From Planktothrix tepida (lineage in GTDB: Bacteria > Cyanobacteriota > Cyanobacteriia > Cyanobacteriales > Microcoleaceae): a DNA stretch of 64,000 nucleotides. Position numbers and translations under genes: made by a program. Positions 3,206 to 26,942 of this stretch are shown in pieces. The stretch is from assembly GCF_904830955.1 (NCBI RefSeq), contig NZ_LR882970.1. The stretch is one strand, 5' to 3'. The notes beneath the pieces are model-generated. The model saw only the letters and a list, made by a program, of their open reading frames with translations, was not told the DNA's origin and did no database searches. The number at the start of each line of letters is the position of its first letter. Positions within the stretch are counted from its first letter, which is position 1.

Positions 3206-3258
3206 GGTTGGGTTTAGCAATTGTGAAACCCAACCCTTTAAACAATTTCTGATTTCTT
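3206..3258. terminator. stem-loop GGTTGGGTTT-N10-AAACCCAACC with flanking T/A-rich tracts; candidate bidirectional terminator
   Basis: 10-bp perfect inverted repeat between convergent small ORFs. Confidence 0.35.
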
Positions 3259-5076: not shown

Positions 5077-6099
5077 ATGCCAATTTCAAATTCTTCCTTC
5101 GTATCATCAGAGGAGTACATCCGAGTTAACCCTCGCTTAACAATTGAAACTTTTCGGGAAAAATGCCCGGTTACGGCTGGAGAGGACGTGATCAAAGGGC
5201 TAACTCAAACTCCCAAAACCTTACCGCCTAAATATTTTTATGATGATCAGGGATCATTATTGTTTGAGAAAATTTGTGAGTTACCTGAATATTATTTAAC
5301 CCGCACAGAAACTAAAATTTTACAAGATTATGCCTCGGAAATTGCCCATTTAACAGGCCCTTGTGAAGTTGTAGAATTAGGAAGTGGGAGTTCTACAAAA
5401 ACTCGAATTCTATTAGACGCTTATCAAGAGTTAGGTCATCCCTTACATTATTTACCCATTGATATTAGTGGGGGAATTTTAGAACAAAGTGCCTATTCTC
5501 TCCTGGAAGATTATCCCACGCTGCATATTCATGGGATTGTTAGTACCTATGAAACAGCCTTGAAGCATCTCAATTCTTCTCCTTTACCATCACGAATGAT
5601 CGGTTTTATTGGGAGTACATTAGGCAATTTAAAACCCGAAGAATGCCATGTTTTTTTTGCCCATGTTGTTGAAGCGTTGCAGCCCGGAGATTATTTTTTA
5701 TTAGGGGTAGATTTACATAAATCTAAGTCGATTTTAGAACCTGCTTATGATGATAGTCAAGGGGTGACGGCTGCTTTTAACTTAAATATGTTGCGACATT
5801 TAAACCGTTTGTTTGAAGGAAATTTTAAGATTGAGCAATTTGAACATTTAGCCTTTTACAATGACACGAAGCATCAAATTGAAATGCACTTAAAAAGTTT
5901 GCGATCGCAAATCGTTGAACTTAAAACCCTGAATTTAACCCTTGAATTTGCAGAAGGGGAAACGATTCATACGGAAATTTCTCGTAAATTTCAATTTGAA
6001 CAAATTCAAGAGGAATTACAAACCCTAGGATTAGTTTCATTAAAGAATTGGACAGATGAAAATCAATATTTGGGTTTAATCTTGTATCAATTGCAATAG
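5077..6099 (+). CDS. egtD: L-histidine N-alpha-methyltransferase-like (EgtD/Methyltransf_33 family)
   Basis: YFYDDQGSLLFEKICELPEYYLTRTE motif and GSGSSTKT SAM-binding stretch typical of EgtD-type methyltransferases; no egtB adjacent. Confidence 0.65.
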   Translation: MPISNSSFVSSEEYIRVNPRLTIETFREKCPVTAGEDVIKGLTQTPKTLPPKYFYDDQGSLLFEKICELPEYYLTRTETKILQDYASEIAHLTGPCEVVELGSGSSTKTRILLDAYQELGHPLHYLPIDISGGILEQSAYSLLEDYPTLHIHGIVSTYETALKHLNSSPLPSRMIGFIGSTLGNLKPEECHVFFAHVVEALQPGDYFLLGVDLHKSKSILEPAYDDSQGVTAAFNLNMLRHLNRLFEGNFKIEQFEHLAFYNDTKHQIEMHLKSLRSQIVELKTLNLTLEFAEGETIHTEISRKFQFEQIQEELQTLGLVSLKNWTDENQYLGLILYQLQ

Positions 6100-6198: not shown

Positions 6199-7509
6199 TC
6201 ACTTGTTTTTTATCCAATCTTCGCCGACTCGAATGGTTAAATCTGAACCCAATTCTCCTGTGGCAGAGGCTTTAATTTCTCCTAAGCCAAGGGCTTTTTG
6301 CATCAATTTTGCCGCGCCTAAGTCTCCGCCTTGAACAATAATTTGGGTTTGCAATTGTGGGGTTGATTCAATAGGGGCTAAATAAACTTGATTAAATCCT
6401 TGATTGGATAAAAAGTTAAGCATTTTTTCAGCCCCAGTAGAATGACCAGAGGCATTTTGAACCGCAATTTTTAAATCTTTGGATAAACGGTCATAAGCAG
6501 ACGGTTCATAGGAACTTTTTAAGGTGTATCCTGTTGAATCTAAACGGAAATATTGATACATTACCCGATCGCGTCCCTGTTCATCCAGGAACCAATAACT
6601 ACTATTAGAATCTTCCTGAGAACTAGAACGACCGGGTAACATCACCATTTTAAAATTCTGGGGTTCCAGATTCAAACCAAAATTAACTAAGGTTAAAATT
6701 TCTTCAAAACTCAAATTAGTATCAATATATTTTTGCATAATCCGAATAATTTCAGGAACACGCGGTAAAACCGTCGGATCTTTGAGTCGAACTAAAATTG
6801 CTTCCATTAACGCTTGTTGACGCTGAACACGACCTAAATCTCCATAACCATCACCCCGAAAGCGCACAAATTGATCCGCTTGTTCTCCATTAATAGTTTG
6901 CCAACCGGGTGCTAAATCAATTTTTAATTGCTGAGTTTTATCTTGATAGGACATCGGTTGAGGAATATAAACTTCTACTCCTCCTAAAAAATCCACTAAT
7001 TCTCGAAATGCACCGCTACTTACACGAACATAACGGTTAACTTCAACTTTGTTTAACGTATTTTGAATTACCTGTTGTGCTAATTGAGCACCCCCCCAAT
7101 AATTCGCCTCATTAATTTTTCCAGTTCCATAACCTGGAATTTCAACTTGAGTATCACGGGGAATAGATAATAAACTCACGGATTTATCTTGGGGTTCAAA
7201 ACCTACTAATAACACCGTATCACTCCGACCTTTAAAAACATCGGGGGATGCTGAATCTTGATTAAGATTGCCATCAATTCCCAACACCAAAATATTAACC
7301 GAACGAGATAAATTATATTTAAACCGATGTCGCCATAGCCCATCTAAAATATTTAATTCGGGTTCATTAAAATCAAATTTTTCAGGAGCGAGTAAAGCTG
7401 TCATTGCGCCTAAAATAGCTGAAATACTAGCCAGCAATAAGACTATAAAACTAAAAAATATTAATTGGAGAATTTTGGGTTTTTGACGGTAAGGGAACGG
7501 AGAAGTCAT
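6199..7509 (-). CDS. LCP (LytR-CpsA-Psr) family cell-envelope polymer transferase
   Basis: N-terminal TM, ILVLGIDG...RSDTVLLV LCP motif, C-terminal LytR_C-like domain. Confidence 0.8.
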   Translation of the reverse strand: MTSPFPYRQKPKILQLIFFSFIVLLLASISAILGAMTALLAPEKFDFNEPELNILDGLWRHRFKYNLSRSVNILVLGIDGNLNQDSASPDVFKGRSDTVLLVGFEPQDKSVSLLSIPRDTQVEIPGYGTGKINEANYWGGAQLAQQVIQNTLNKVEVNRYVRVSSGAFRELVDFLGGVEVYIPQPMSYQDKTQQLKIDLAPGWQTINGEQADQFVRFRGDGYGDLGRVQRQQALMEAILVRLKDPTVLPRVPEIIRIMQKYIDTNLSFEEILTLVNFGLNLEPQNFKMVMLPGRSSSQEDSNSSYWFLDEQGRDRVMYQYFRLDSTGYTLKSSYEPSAYDRLSKDLKIAVQNASGHSTGAEKMLNFLSNQGFNQVYLAPIESTPQLQTQIIVQGGDLGAAKLMQKALGLGEIKASATGELGSDLTIRVGEDWIKNK

Positions 7510-19528: not shown

Positions 19529-20116
19529 ATGTATACCCACTTTCAAGCTTCTCAAACTGTTGAAATGGCTGTACCCAAGCCCAATTTGATTCACCATTAT
19601 CTACGTCAACCGAAACGTTTGGTGAAGGCGTTAGTTGATCCGACTCGTTTGGATCACTTGGGAGAGGAGATTTACCGCTTAAAAATGCGTCCTTTGCAGT
19701 TCATGATGTTCAGTTTACAACCGACGGTAGACTTGAAAGTCTGGATACAGTCCGATGGAATTCTTAACTTAAAATCCGTTGGCTGTGAAATTCGAGGAAT
19801 TGAGTATATTAATCAACGGTTTTCCCTGAATTTAGTGGGGAAACTCTATCCAGTTCAATTACAAGGAATTACCCATTTAAAAGGTCAAGCGGATTTAGAA
19901 GTAAAAGTTGAACTTCCTCCCCCTTTATGGTTAACGCCCCAACCTATTTTAGAAACAACCGGAAATGGATTATTAAAAAGCGTGCTGATGACGGTTAGGC
20001 ACCGATTAGTTCATAATTTATTATCGGATTATTCCCATTGGTCTGAAGAACAATTAGGAGTTGGGGGACGCCAACCTCAGTCTAACAATGCGGTATCGAG
20101 TATGGAGTGGCTGTAG
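19529..20116 (+). CDS. conserved hypothetical protein (possibly DUF1997 family)
   Basis: 195 aa; family assignment from memory, weak. Confidence 0.55.
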   Translation: MYTHFQASQTVEMAVPKPNLIHHYLRQPKRLVKALVDPTRLDHLGEEIYRLKMRPLQFMMFSLQPTVDLKVWIQSDGILNLKSVGCEIRGIEYINQRFSLNLVGKLYPVQLQGITHLKGQADLEVKVELPPPLWLTPQPILETTGNGLLKSVLMTVRHRLVHNLLSDYSHWSEEQLGVGGRQPQSNNAVSSMEWL

Positions 20117-21380: not shown

Positions 21381-22184
21381 TTAATGATTTTGGGGTTGAG
21401 TTGGCATCGAATTAATTTCAACGTTAATCCAAGGAACTCCAATTAACCTTTCTAGTCCGTTCGCTTTTAAAAGATTGTCCCAAGTAGCTGTTAAAGTCGC
21501 ATCATTAGGATTTTGATGACGTAATTCATCTAATAAAATCAGGGCATCATATTCTAATCCCAGGGATTGATACAGTTTAAAACGATCATAAGCGGTCATC
21601 TGTTGTAGAAGTTTTGTTTGTATTTCTCGATTAGTGGAAAGCCGTTGGATTTTTCCTTTAATCATAGTGCTTCCACTAAAATCTCCTGTCGTGTCACAAG
21701 TGATTTGAAAAGACCAAGAATAAGGATTACCCGTTTCTACAAATAACTCAGCAACGGATTTGGGTAAACTGATACGCAATAAACCAGATTGAGCTTCTAA
21801 ATTCAATTTCCCTTCATAGATTGTGTTTTTATTTTGATCTGTAATGATGAATTCTCCTAGGAAGGGTGATTGTTCAGGAACAGATAAAATCTGATCGGAT
21901 TTCAAAGGGGGAATATAAAATAAAAAAGTAGGAGTATCTGCTAAGGTCGTTGGTGTCCCCTGTTTGGGTTTAATGGCAATTAATGGAATATCAAAACAAT
22001 ATCCTCGCGTGATATTCGGTTCTGTGGCAGGTTTGTCGGTATCGGGTGGGGGTGTTACATCTTCACTGACTTGAATGGGAGAGGTTTGAGGTTGTGGAGA
22101 TTGTTGGAATATAGAAAAGTTAAAACCTAGCCCCGTGGCTAAGGTCATACTGAGGAAAGCGAAATGGAATGGATGACGTGACAT
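21381..22184 (-). CDS. hypothetical secreted protein (signal peptide; possibly DUF928-like)
   Basis: N-terminal signal peptide, Pro/Thr-rich linker. Confidence 0.55.
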   Translation of the reverse strand: MSRHPFHFAFLSMTLATGLGFNFSIFQQSPQPQTSPIQVSEDVTPPPDTDKPATEPNITRGYCFDIPLIAIKPKQGTPTTLADTPTFLFYIPPLKSDQILSVPEQSPFLGEFIITDQNKNTIYEGKLNLEAQSGLLRISLPKSVAELFVETGNPYSWSFQITCDTTGDFSGSTMIKGKIQRLSTNREIQTKLLQQMTAYDRFKLYQSLGLEYDALILLDELRHQNPNDATLTATWDNLLKANGLERLIGVPWINVEINSMPTQPQNH

Positions 22185-22359: not shown

Positions 22360-23174
22360 ATGAAATTCTGGAAAAAATTACTGATTGATCCATGCTATCA
22401 AATTACTTTAATTTATGCAATAACGGGTGGTCTTTGGATTGCTTTTTCTGATCATCTATTAGCCCTATTAGCCCATTATCCCTATTCTATTACGGTTTTT
22501 CAAACGATTAAAGGCTGGTTTTTTATCTTAATTACCAGTCTCCTCCTCTATTATTTAATTCGTCAAGAAACCCAGCGTTTGCAACTTTCCGAAAAACGGT
22601 ATCGAGATTTATTTTTGAATCATCCTCAACCTATTGGGGTTTATGATCTAAAAACGTTAAAATTTTTGGCTGTTAATGAAGCTGCGATCGCTCATTATGG
22701 TTATTCAGAATCAGAATTTCTGAAGATGACAATTTTAGATCTGTGTTCTCCTGAAGAGTCTGAATCGTTTAAACTTTTGATGACATCAAATGCTAAAAGT
22801 AGTGATCAAAAAAATCTATCTAAACATCGCAAGAAAGATGGAATGTTAATTGATGTTGAAATTCTTTCTCATCAATTACAGATGATTTTGGAACCGGATA
22901 TTCTTCTTTAAGTTATTTACAGAATTTACCCATTGATACCCTAAAAATTGATAGGAGTTTTGTCAAAAATTTAGAATCTCCAGGGAAAGATTTGGAAATC
23001 ACAAAAACCATTGTTAATTTAGCCAAATGCCTGAATTTAGATATTATTGCTGAAGGGATAGAAACCCCAGTTCAAAAAGAAATTTTACAATCCTTGGGTT
23101 GCGAAGCCGGACAAGGATATTGGTTTTCACCGCCCTTAAATTGGACAGGAATAACAAATTTTTTATCGATTTAA
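22360..23174 (+). pseudogene. disrupted PAS-(GGDEF)-EAL c-di-GMP signalling gene: intact 2TM+PAS N-terminus (22360..22911), then frameshift/deletion junction, then EAL C-terminal ~95 aa
   Basis: frame +1 from 22878 reads DDFGTGYSSLSYLQNLPIDTLKIDRSFV...AEGIET...GQGYWFSPP (EAL C-terminal motifs) but is preceded by a stop; GGDEF and EAL N-half missing. Confidence 0.65.
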
Positions 23175-23254: not shown

Positions 23255-23779
23255 ATGGGACTATTCGATCAAATTATAACGGCTCTCAATGATCCAAACC
23301 AAGCCGGAAACAGCACTCAGATGAGTAATATTCTCAATACGGCTCAACAGCTTGGGAACCAATTAGGTATTTCTCCTCAAACCAGTCAAATGGTGATGTC
23401 AATGGTGGGGAGTTCTGTTCGGTCTTCTTTACAAGAAAAACGAACCCAACTTGGAAATGAGGCGACTCAAAATATCGTCAATGAATTTGGAGGAACAACA
23501 CCGAGTACCCAGGCGGTTCAAATGTTATTTTCTCCCACTCAGCAACAACAATTAATTCAAACTATTTCTCAACATACGGGTGTTAGTTCCCAAACCCTTC
23601 AATCCCTTTTACCAGTGGTTGTTCCTTTAGTTTTAAACCTTCTAAAAACCGGAACAAATCAACAACAACCTCAAGGAGGTTCTAATCAAGTTTTGAATAG
23701 TTTTTTAGATGCAGATGGCGATGGAGATGTTGATGTTGCGGATGCGATGCGTTTAGCAGGACAATATTTTCAAAGTTAA
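23255..23779 (+). CDS. DUF937-family protein (YidB-like)
   Basis: MGLFDQI N-terminus and Gln-rich low-complexity, C-terminal DADGDGDVDVADAMRLAGQYF. Confidence 0.6.
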   Translation: MGLFDQIITALNDPNQAGNSTQMSNILNTAQQLGNQLGISPQTSQMVMSMVGSSVRSSLQEKRTQLGNEATQNIVNEFGGTTPSTQAVQMLFSPTQQQQLIQTISQHTGVSSQTLQSLLPVVVPLVLNLLKTGTNQQQPQGGSNQVLNSFLDADGDGDVDVADAMRLAGQYFQS

Positions 23780-23833: not shown

Positions 23834-24127
23834 ATGGTTATTGAGTGGTTAAAATTTCAAGTTCCCCCTGAAAAATGGGAAGCCTTTATTCAACGGGATG
23901 AAGAAGTTTGGACAGCCGGACTTCAAGAGTTTCCTGGGTTTTTAGGAAAAGAAATTTGGGTTAATGCTGAACAACAGGAAATTGTTTTAGTGATTCGTTG
24001 GGAGTCTCAGACCCAATGGGATGCTGTTCCCGAATCTAAAATCCAACAACTCGACGAAGCAATGGGCGAATTACAAATGCCTATTGTAGAAAGTCGAGCT
24101 TATCAAATGTCGAAATTGATTCCCTAA
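23834..24127 (+). CDS. small conserved protein (TIGR03792-like / ABM-fold-like)
   Basis: 97 aa, MVIEWLKF...EVW...FLGKEIW pattern; from memory. Confidence 0.5.
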   Translation: MVIEWLKFQVPPEKWEAFIQRDEEVWTAGLQEFPGFLGKEIWVNAEQQEIVLVIRWESQTQWDAVPESKIQQLDEAMGELQMPIVESRAYQMSKLIP

Positions 24128-24566: not shown

Positions 24567-25469
24567 ATGTTTCCTCCAGCCTCTTCTGCCCATCCTTCTC
24601 GACCCCATGCTATAACTCCTAGCGCTATGCCAATGCCTAACTCTATCTTTCCTAGAACGGTTTTTTCAACGTTGAAACAACGGCATTGGTTAGAGTGGTT
24701 AGAGTATCTCTCCCTAGCAAGTTCAGCCATCGGTTCTGGAGTTGTTGCCCTTTCCGGTCAAGCCTTTTATGGCGTTGCCCCCTTAACCTTAGCAGTTTCA
24801 TTAAATGTTGCTAACCGCTATCGTTTAGAACAACAAACCCATCAAAGTCAAATGGAAATTGTACAGGTTCAAAATTCCGTTGAAAAATTAGAAAAAAATA
24901 CGGTTAAAGTGGTTATGGGGTTGAGACAACAACTCCTCAATGAAATTGAATCCCTCCAGCAAAAATTAGAAGAATATCCGAACACAGACGCTTTAGAATC
25001 GGTTTATCGAGCTAAACAAGTTGCCGCTTTAGGACAGTCAGTAACATCCATGCAGGAACATATTGCTGGAGCTTTAGAAGAAGTTCGGGAGCAGTTTCGT
25101 CAAGAATTACACAATTTTTCCTCAACAGAATTTGTCCATTTAGAATCGTTACAAGAAAATTTGAAACAATTACAGGATATTACCTACGAATTAAGAAATA
25201 ATGCTGTAACTCAACAGGATTTTCAAGGCCGATTTGTAGAAATTCAAGATGTCATTCATCAATTACAACAAGAAAAATCTGTACAACCTTCTTCCTCGGT
25301 AGATTTATCCCAAATTCAAACGAGATTAGATGCACTAACCCAAGAACATAAAGAGGTGATTAAACCCCATCTGAGACGTTTATTGTCCGTTGTTAAACAA
25401 TTACAAACCACTCAGACTCGACCCTTGCCCGTTCCTCCTAAACCCCTGCCCAAACATCCCACCCAATAA
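24567..25469 (+). CDS. hypothetical coiled-coil protein with one TM segment
   Basis: heptad-rich Q/E/L sequence, Pro-rich C-terminus; true start probably internal. Confidence 0.55.
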   Translation: MFPPASSAHPSRPHAITPSAMPMPNSIFPRTVFSTLKQRHWLEWLEYLSLASSAIGSGVVALSGQAFYGVAPLTLAVSLNVANRYRLEQQTHQSQMEIVQVQNSVEKLEKNTVKVVMGLRQQLLNEIESLQQKLEEYPNTDALESVYRAKQVAALGQSVTSMQEHIAGALEEVREQFRQELHNFSSTEFVHLESLQENLKQLQDITYELRNNAVTQQDFQGRFVEIQDVIHQLQQEKSVQPSSSVDLSQIQTRLDALTQEHKEVIKPHLRRLLSVVKQLQTTQTRPLPVPPKPLPKHPTQ

Positions 25470-26261: not shown

Positions 26262-26942
26262 ATGATGTTTATGATGTTCAAATCATTTCAGCGTTTTTGT
26301 CAGGATTTCTCGCTACAAAATAATAATCGAGTCTTTTTTTTAGGCATCAGTTTATTATTACTGTTGATGGCGCAACCTGCCACAGCCCATCATGCCTTTG
26401 GCGGTCGAATTCCGAAGAATTTTTTTGAAGGATTTTTATCAGGACTCGCTCATCCCATCATTGGAATTGATCACTTTGCCTTTATTCTTTCCATTGGTTT
26501 AATTGCAGCTAGTATTGTGGGTGGAATTTGGATAATTGTCGGGTTTCTAGGGGCTGCTATGTTAGGGACAGCAATCCATTTAATGAGTTTTAATTTGCCG
26601 GTTCCTGAAGTGGCGATCGCCCTATCGGTGATTACCATTGGCATTTTATTAGTGCTGAAAAAACAATTACCCCTAGCCGTATTAATCAGTTTAGCAAGCG
26701 TAGCGGGTTTATTTCATGGCTATGCCTATGGAGAATCAATTATGGGGGCAGGAATGATGCCTTTAATCTCCTATTTGGCAGGATTTACTTTGATTCAATT
26801 GGGAATAGCGGGAGCGACGATGAAACTCGCTCAATCCTTCCAACAAACCTTAGAAACTAGCAAATATTCCCTGATCAAATATTCAGGTTTTGCTGTTGTA
26901 GCGATTGGGGTAATTGCTTTATCTAGTGCAATTACAGGCTAA
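26262..26942 (+). CDS. hupE: HupE/UreJ family metal (Ni/Co) transporter
   Basis: signal peptide, HPxxGxDH motif (LAHPIIGIDH), 6 TM. Confidence 0.8.
   Translation: MMFMMFKSFQRFCQDFSLQNNNRVFFLGISLLLLLMAQPATAHHAFGGRIPKNFFEGFLSGLAHPIIGIDHFAFILSIGLIAASIVGGIWIIVGFLGAAMLGTAIHLMSFNLPVPEVAIALSVITIGILLVLKKQLPLAVLISLASVAGLFHGYAYGESIMGAGMMPLISYLAGFTLIQLGIAGATMKLAQSFQQTLETSKYSLIKYSGFAVVAIGVIALSSAITG

Follow-up and report, generated by a model that had tools for sequence, protein, structure and literature searches.

The interval from position 22360 to 23174 of the 64-kb stretch of Planktothrix tepida PCC 9214 DNA analyzed here (hereafter the window) is, we conclude with high confidence, a unitary pseudogene created by one recent 1060-bp deletion within a gene that once encoded a membrane-anchored PAS-GGDEF-EAL protein. 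Close relatives carry an intact ortholog of this gene at the same position, and both the reading frame and the domains are disrupted in the window. What is left consists of two remnants that abut at the deletion junction (Table 1). The case is one of ordinary gene decay of a known kind and brings no new mechanism to light.

Table 1. Coordinates of the two remnants, the neighboring genes and the corresponding loci in related genomes. Positions are those of the window unless a locus is named.
Feature	Location	Strand	Description
5′ remnant, native	22360..22881	+	Codons 1-174 of the 624-codon ancestral gene; membrane module and PAS up to ...VEILSHQLQ
Deletion junction	22880..22881	+	1060 nt gone; G22881 assignable to either flank
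Frameshifted ORF tail	22882..22911	+	9 non-native codons (MILEPDILL), then TAA stop
3′ remnant	22881..23174	+	Ancestral codons 528-624 and stop; C-terminal 36% of EAL domain
Upstream synteny anchor, DUF928 gene (267 aa)	21381..22184	-	Divergent; Pfam E=1.5e-37; adjoins intact gene in L086, L087 and L088
Downstream synteny anchor, DUF937 gene (174 aa)	23255..23779	+	Pfam assignment
ABM-domain gene	23834..24127		Follows DUF937; same order at all related loci
Intact ortholog, P. serta PCC 8927	L086		WP_083625599.1 (P0131), 624 aa
Intact orthologs, P. paucivesiculata PCC 9631 and Planktothrix sp. PCC 11201	L008 and L009		
Intact ortholog, Planktothrix sp. FACHB-1365	L087		95.5-96% nt identity to window
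Intact ortholog, 'P. mougeotii' LEGE 06226	L088/L089		96.8-97.4% nt identity; identical copy on SRA-derived contig
Eroded or absent loci, mapped on L086 coordinates	L004 7693-7783; L006 7755-7952; L003 5382-5396; L005 7924-7944; L017 2597-2661		

The ORF at 22360..22911 encodes a protein of 183 aa, in which 174 native residues are followed by 9 frameshifted residues that result from an out-of-frame reading of EAL-coding DNA (22882..22911). When translations are compared, the orthologs continue ...LQWNHQPAEVILAQDVT at the point where the 183-aa ORF switches to MILEPDILL. After the junction, the close homologs read ...LQW..., and distant PAS homologs, past ...VEIxSHxL, read ...GRxAxLVLAxDVTERK. 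The original prediction described the product of this ORF as an N terminus with two transmembrane helices and a PAS domain, which holds only in part. By using Kyte-Doolittle 19-residue means with a cut-off of 1.6, we located one strong transmembrane segment at residues 49-67 (1.72) and a weaker hydrophobic segment at approximately residues 20-38 that falls below the cut-off (1.48), and a second helix is therefore plausible rather than firmly predicted. The PAS domain is likewise partial. Residues 80-168 give weak Pfam matches to PAS_8 and PAS_9 (profile positions 9-79 of 103), with scores under the gathering thresholds, and the domain is short of approximately its last 15 residues, as native sequence ends at residue 174 and the PAS domain of the orthologs extends to about residue 190. 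The ORF thus does not encode a complete PAS fold, which is a five-stranded sheet that includes the terminal strand.

The frame that encodes the EAL domain is open from 22860 to its stop codon at 23172-23174 and, beginning with the aspartate encoded at 22881, reads DDFGTGYSSLSYLQNLPIDTLKIDRSFV...GQGYWFSPP. This 3′ remnant matches positions 152-236 of the 236-position Pfam EAL profile (PF00563; E=1.3e-28) and retains the motifs DDFGTGYSS, KID, EGIET, and QGY. Only 5 of 20,000 mononucleotide shuffles of 22881-23171 are free of stop codons, which places the open frame well outside chance expectation. An EAL C terminus had been predicted in a +1 frame from 22878. Its identity as an EAL tail is upheld by the profile match, but its position needed a small correction: the junction lies at 22880/22881. 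The EAL frame is offset from the PAS ORF by 2 nt (equivalently -1), which is the shift that a loss of 3n+1 bases predicts. The remnant does not represent a full EAL domain, as the EAL-motif Glu, the Asn, and the ExxE residues, all of which belong to the N-terminal half, are missing. Nor does it form a translatable ORF, given that it has no native start codon and does not share the frame of the ORF upstream. Neither piece yields a Pfam match to GGDEF (PF00990).

Intact orthologs and the ancestral gene

An intact gene of 620-624 aa with the architecture 2TM-PAS-degenerate GGDEF-EAL occupies the syntenic position in five relatives. A word-indexed protein search with the N-terminal ORF returned the ORF itself and distant PAS fragments and missed these orthologs, which were recovered by an exhaustive HMMER search and by neighbor-gene synteny. 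Syntenic loci were retrieved through a genome scan with the downstream DUF937 neighbor followed by tblastn, together with look-ups of neighboring proteins. Both sides of the junction are 95-97% identical at the nucleotide level to the intact genes and gene order is conserved, which establishes descent from the PAS-GGDEF-EAL family. Identity to the orthologs from P. serta, LEGE 06226, and FACHB-1365 is 77-98% over the N-terminal 174 residues and 94-100% over the last 97. By tblastn, the 5′ remnant has 70-77% amino acid identity to the orthologs from P. serta, PCC 9631, and PCC 11201.

Pfam assigns residues 80-190 of the orthologs to PAS, residues 202-357 to GGDEF, and residues 378-612 to EAL. 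The GGDEF motif is degenerate (DSEDF), with 'vdsedf' aligned to 'lggdef' of PDB 5m3c. The EAL domain covers profile positions 2-236 and carries EALVRW, NLS, EITET, DDFGTGYSS, KID, EGIET, and QGY, the motifs that an active c-di-GMP phosphodiesterase should have. Purifying selection acts on the intact genes (omega 0.15-0.2), including the segment that is lost in the window. The ancestor was a 624-aa membrane-anchored sensor that most probably functioned as a signal-regulated c-di-GMP phosphodiesterase. Its EAL domain looks catalytically complete, although we infer the enzymatic activity from the motifs only.

The upstream neighbor varies among these genomes. DUF928 has 267 aa in P. tepida, LEGE 06226, and FACHB-1365 and 199 aa in P. 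serta (L086 4206-4805), is absent in PCC 9631 and PCC 11201 (L008, L009 5947-6040), and is fragmentary in KTt_bin-1839. We also observed that LEGE 06226 (JADEWU010000011.1) is approximately 97% identical to PCC 9214 over 12 kb in this region. Judged by this locus, LEGE 06226 groups with the tepida/pseudagardhii lineage, and its label of Planktothrix mougeotii looks doubtful.

Endpoints, age, and distribution of the deletion

The original prediction had named alignment to full-length orthologs as a check, and all such alignments break at window position 22880/22881. Exactly 1060 nt are missing, which corresponds to 353 codons (175-527) plus one base. The lost parts are the end of PAS, the linker, GGDEF (202-357), and EAL residues 378-527, or the first 64% of EAL, and the intact orthologs thereby bear out the earlier statement that the whole GGDEF domain and the N-terminal half of EAL are gone. 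In blastn alignments, window position 22881 aligns to both positions 3255 and 4315 of the FACHB-1365 and LEGE 06226 loci (L087/L088) and to both positions 5522 and 6582 of the P. serta locus (L086). The same 1060-nt gap pattern is seen against PCC 9631 and PCC 11201. With a slash to mark the breakpoint, the left flank of the intact gene reads ...CAATTACAG/TGGAAT... (CAG/TGG), the right flank reads ...TTTTAATT/GATGATTTT... (ATT/GAT), and the window reads ...CAATTACAGATGATTTT... across the junction. A single 1060-nt event therefore explains the lost domains and the change of frame together.

Microhomology at the junction amounts to 1 nt, a single shared G. A scan of the intact P. serta gene revealed no in-register direct repeat flanking the deletion endpoints. 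A repeat-mediated deletion was considered and rejected, as the nearest pair in P. serta (5535-5550 and 6604-6619, with a spacing of 1069) does not line up with the endpoints. The missing segment of approximately 1 kb has no other copy in the 64-kb window. Because there is only one shared G and no in-register repeat, we infer illegitimate recombination or slippage. The event, with 1 nt of microhomology, took away 1060 bp (codons 175-527 and one base) and with them the last PAS strand, the linker, the whole of GGDEF, and EAL up to 64% of its length. It left 97 EAL codons out of frame as an untranslatable tail. The native promoter may still drive transcription of the 183-aa ORF, and the c-di-GMP network would be short of one phosphodiesterase. 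Scans for promoter and terminator consensus sequences gave counts equal to the shuffled expectation.

No additional decay is visible in the remnants. The 5′ remnant departs from the LEGE 06226 gene at 10 of 522 nt (L088 2734-3255; 6 synonymous and 4 nonsynonymous changes) and the 3′ remnant at 4 of 294 nt. All 4 changes in the 3′ remnant are synonymous, such that its protein sequence is 100% identical to the C termini from LEGE 06226 and FACHB-1365. The two remnants carry 3 (in 510 nt) and 0 (in 294 nt) substitutions specific to P. tepida, versus 0.7-1.4% in flanking genes, and S87N is the only tepida-derived amino acid change. Omega values relative to P. serta are 0.06 (EAL) and 0.17 (N terminus), and branch counts of synonymous and nonsynonymous changes (15.5/11.5 for tepida versus 12.5/11.5 for serta) reveal no difference between the lineages. 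There is accordingly no excess of substitutions of the kind that relaxed selection or further decay would leave, with the reservation that the changes are very few. Two residues, G93 (in PIGVYD) and the W of QGYWF, were considered as possible postdeletion damage and rejected, as both are present in the intact LEGE 06226 and FACHB-1365 proteins.

The deletion is judged to be very recent because the remnants carry no extra decay. Divergence values place it after the split from LEGE 06226 and FACHB-1365 (3-4% nucleotide divergence) and before the split between PCC 9214 and No713 (~0.1%). The low dN/dS of the remnants could instead reflect continued selection, the substitutions being too few to separate selection from youth. 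A single 1060-nt loss, the lack of excess substitutions, and the absence of the deletion from relatives that are ~97% identical all agree with the original description of a recent internal deletion.

Farther downstream, a 300-aa coiled-coil-like ORF (window 24567-25469) that has no confident Pfam family carries 12 tepida-specific substitutions in 903 nt, versus 1 specific to LEGE 06226 and 2 specific to FACHB-1365, which is a rate far above that of its neighbors.

The identical remnant and junction are present in P. pseudagardhii No713 (L002, LR882967.1). This strain comes from Lake Saka, Uganda (2007), and PCC 9214, which has a 6.27-Mb chromosome, is a 1989 isolate from the Central African Republic (PMC9366434). 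The DUF1997 allele of the window is that of PCC 9214, and L002 has the one on record for P. pseudagardhii. The No713 sequence differs from the window by 6 SNPs in 6552 nt, all of which lie outside the remnant. These SNPs are clustered, with four (19837, 19852, 19856, and 19885) falling in a 49-nt stretch of the DUF1997 gene (19529..20116) and two (24887 and 25010) in the 300-aa ORF, a pattern that points to a local hotspot or a small recombination tract and away from uniform divergence.

Alternative readings and annotation of the remnants

The possibility that a sequencing or assembly artefact collapsed approximately 1 kb of an intact gene had been considered unlikely in the original prediction given the amount of DNA missing, and the present data make its probability negligible. 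The DNA across the junction is identical in No713, and SNPs elsewhere mark No713 as a distinct genome. Moreover, the 183-aa ORF and the EAL piece were already recorded in a 2017 draft (CUR32616.1/CUR32617.1, on a contig of 331,620 nt), and both recur in the closed PCC 9214 chromosome (6,266,439 nt) and in No713 (6,601,744 nt). An artefact of assembly or of culture is excluded because the junction recurs in an independent isolate and in several assemblies. A separate observation concerns the metagenome contig Ga0495054_004795 (L001 1-21; JGI 3300045276), from an organism resembling PCC 9631 (97% amino acid identity), which ends 16 nt past the equivalent of the junction, inside the stretch that encodes DDFGTGYSS. 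The assembler probably broke off at a conserved motif here, with a structural polymorphism at the site as the less likely alternative.

It is conceivable that the 183-aa product has been retained as a functional small membrane protein, for example, as a scaffold for paralogous PAS sensors or as their dominant-negative partner, and a possible standalone membrane PAS protein had indeed been proposed. The native start is still in place and the region upstream of it is conserved. The ORF bears no further lesion, is common to two natural isolates, and has undergone the single lineage-specific amino acid change S87N. Short database proteins that begin with the same membrane-PAS module also exist (P0258, 255 aa; P0213, 413 aa), although both are longer and have a complete PAS domain. 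However, all these features are expected of so young a pseudogene. The terminal PAS beta-strand has been replaced by nine frameshifted residues (native sequence extends to residue 174 versus ~190 in the ortholog), the Pfam PAS scores fall under the gathering thresholds, and no instance of the exact short form was found outside the deletion-bearing lineage. A metagenome scan for tepida-like copies that might reveal population polymorphism returned distant PAS proteins only. With the terminal strand missing and no sign of selection to maintain the short ORF, the proposal of a standalone protein is not sustained, and we regard a retained function as very unlikely. Production of a 2TM-PAS-EAL′ fusion protein by programmed ribosomal frameshifting in the 22860-22911 overlap is less credible still, to the point of being hardly worth entertaining. 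The overlap of the two frames does span approximately 50 nt, with the EAL frame open from 22860 onward, but a scan of 22858-22905 in the PAS frame revealed no X_XXY_YYZ slippery heptamer or homopolymer run, and the fusion would gain only 36% of an EAL TIM barrel, a part that lacks the EAL-motif Glu as well as the Asn and ExxE residues. Furthermore, the deletion of 3n+1 nt accounts fully for the frame offset. We therefore return to the pseudogene reading, under which the 183-aa ORF is most likely a non-functional by-product.

A standalone 'half-EAL' family was also considered and rejected. A search with the EAL remnant returned proteins that are nearly all 80-175 aa in length, but most start at or just after an internal Met of the conserved ITES.LMEN stretch, and such proteins reside on short contigs or are gene-caller truncations.

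Neither remnant is flagged as a pseudogene in public records. The 183-aa protein is recorded as CUR32616.1/WP_072719336.1 (identical, P. tepida) and as CAD5951233.1, and this stub bears the name 'Multi-sensor signal transduction histidine kinase' even though a kinase domain is absent. The EAL tail appears as records CUR32617.1, WP_245824250.1, and WP_083580008.1, with lengths of 60, 80, or 99 aa, improvised starts, and the name 'EAL domain-containing protein'. An exact-sequence look-up of the 80-aa RefSeq EAL piece matched no contig. The two annotated proteins should be flagged as one pseudogene, and P. tepida and P. pseudagardhii No713 have one fewer predicted c-di-GMP phosphodiesterase than the relatives nearest to them. 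This difference is relevant to counts of signaling genes and to comparisons of benthic and planktic Planktothrix. The main value of the finding is thus for annotation and comparative genomics.

Recurrent loss and comparison with known systems

The gene is eroded elsewhere in the genus. A P. serta-like metagenome-assembled genome, KTt_bin-1839, keeps only EAL codons ~575-624, along with a twice-deleted DUF928, and Planktothrix sp. GU0601_MAG3 keeps only codons ~15-73 of the PAS-GGDEF-EAL gene. Together with P. tepida/No713, these constitute three independent partial deletions with different endpoints. In UBA8402, CG2_30_40_61, and FCentRs1_7, both the PAS-GGDEF-EAL gene and DUF928 are wholly absent, for which loss and ancestral state are both possible explanations. 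The repeated erosion hints at dispensability or at recurrent selection for loss. A bolder proposal is that phosphodiesterase loss is adaptive and recurrent in Planktothrix, with the stub perhaps modulating paralogous sensors, which we consider improbable. If true, recurrent loss would represent repeated selection that rewires c-di-GMP signaling during shifts between benthic and planktic lifestyles.

Another gene in this neighborhood has also been shortened. The HupE/UreJ gene (window 26262-26942) is intact here and in FACHB-1365, and its LEGE 06226 counterpart has a 478-nt internal deletion exactly between 13-nt direct repeats, TTTG[T/G]CAGGATTT, that are located at window positions 26296-26308 and 26774-26786 (L088 7729-7741). 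A separate deletion of ~391 nt is found in the P. serta gene (L086 10218/10219). Gene loss in this region seems to proceed repeatedly by small internal deletions. Genome variation driven by gene loss has been reported for Planktothrix (PMC9366434), and the deletion described here provides a cleanly dated case of the small internal deletions behind such variation.

The closest systems for comparison are the intact orthologs from P. serta, LEGE 06226, and FACHB-1365, which share with the window the locus order DUF928, gene, DUF937, and ABM. These genes are uninterrupted and encode whole PAS, GGDEF (DSEDF), and EAL domains, whereas the window is without codons 175-527 and is frameshifted. Over GGDEF and EAL, the LEGE 06226 ortholog aligns to 5m3c, MorA (4rnh), Escherichia coli DosP (9cmf), and RbdA/PA0861 (5xgb) with E values of 4.5e-89 to 1e-47. 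The ancestral gene resembles DosP in combining a PAS sensor with a GGDEF domain and an EAL phosphodiesterase domain, and the GGDEF domain of DosP is also degenerate. In contrast to these solved GGDEF-EAL tandems, the window could not work in the same manner because only the last third of EAL is left and GGDEF is gone. The feature descends from the PAS-GGDEF-EAL family and is no longer a member of it, as it has no GGDEF domain, 36% of EAL, and a broken frame. It is instead like the unitary pseudogenes that arise by deletion in bacterial genomes, with which it shares a single internal deletion, minimal microhomology, intact sister orthologs, and pieces misannotated as coding sequences. Nothing essential differs from those cases, except that this one is unusually young, being bracketed between ~3% and ~0.1% divergence.
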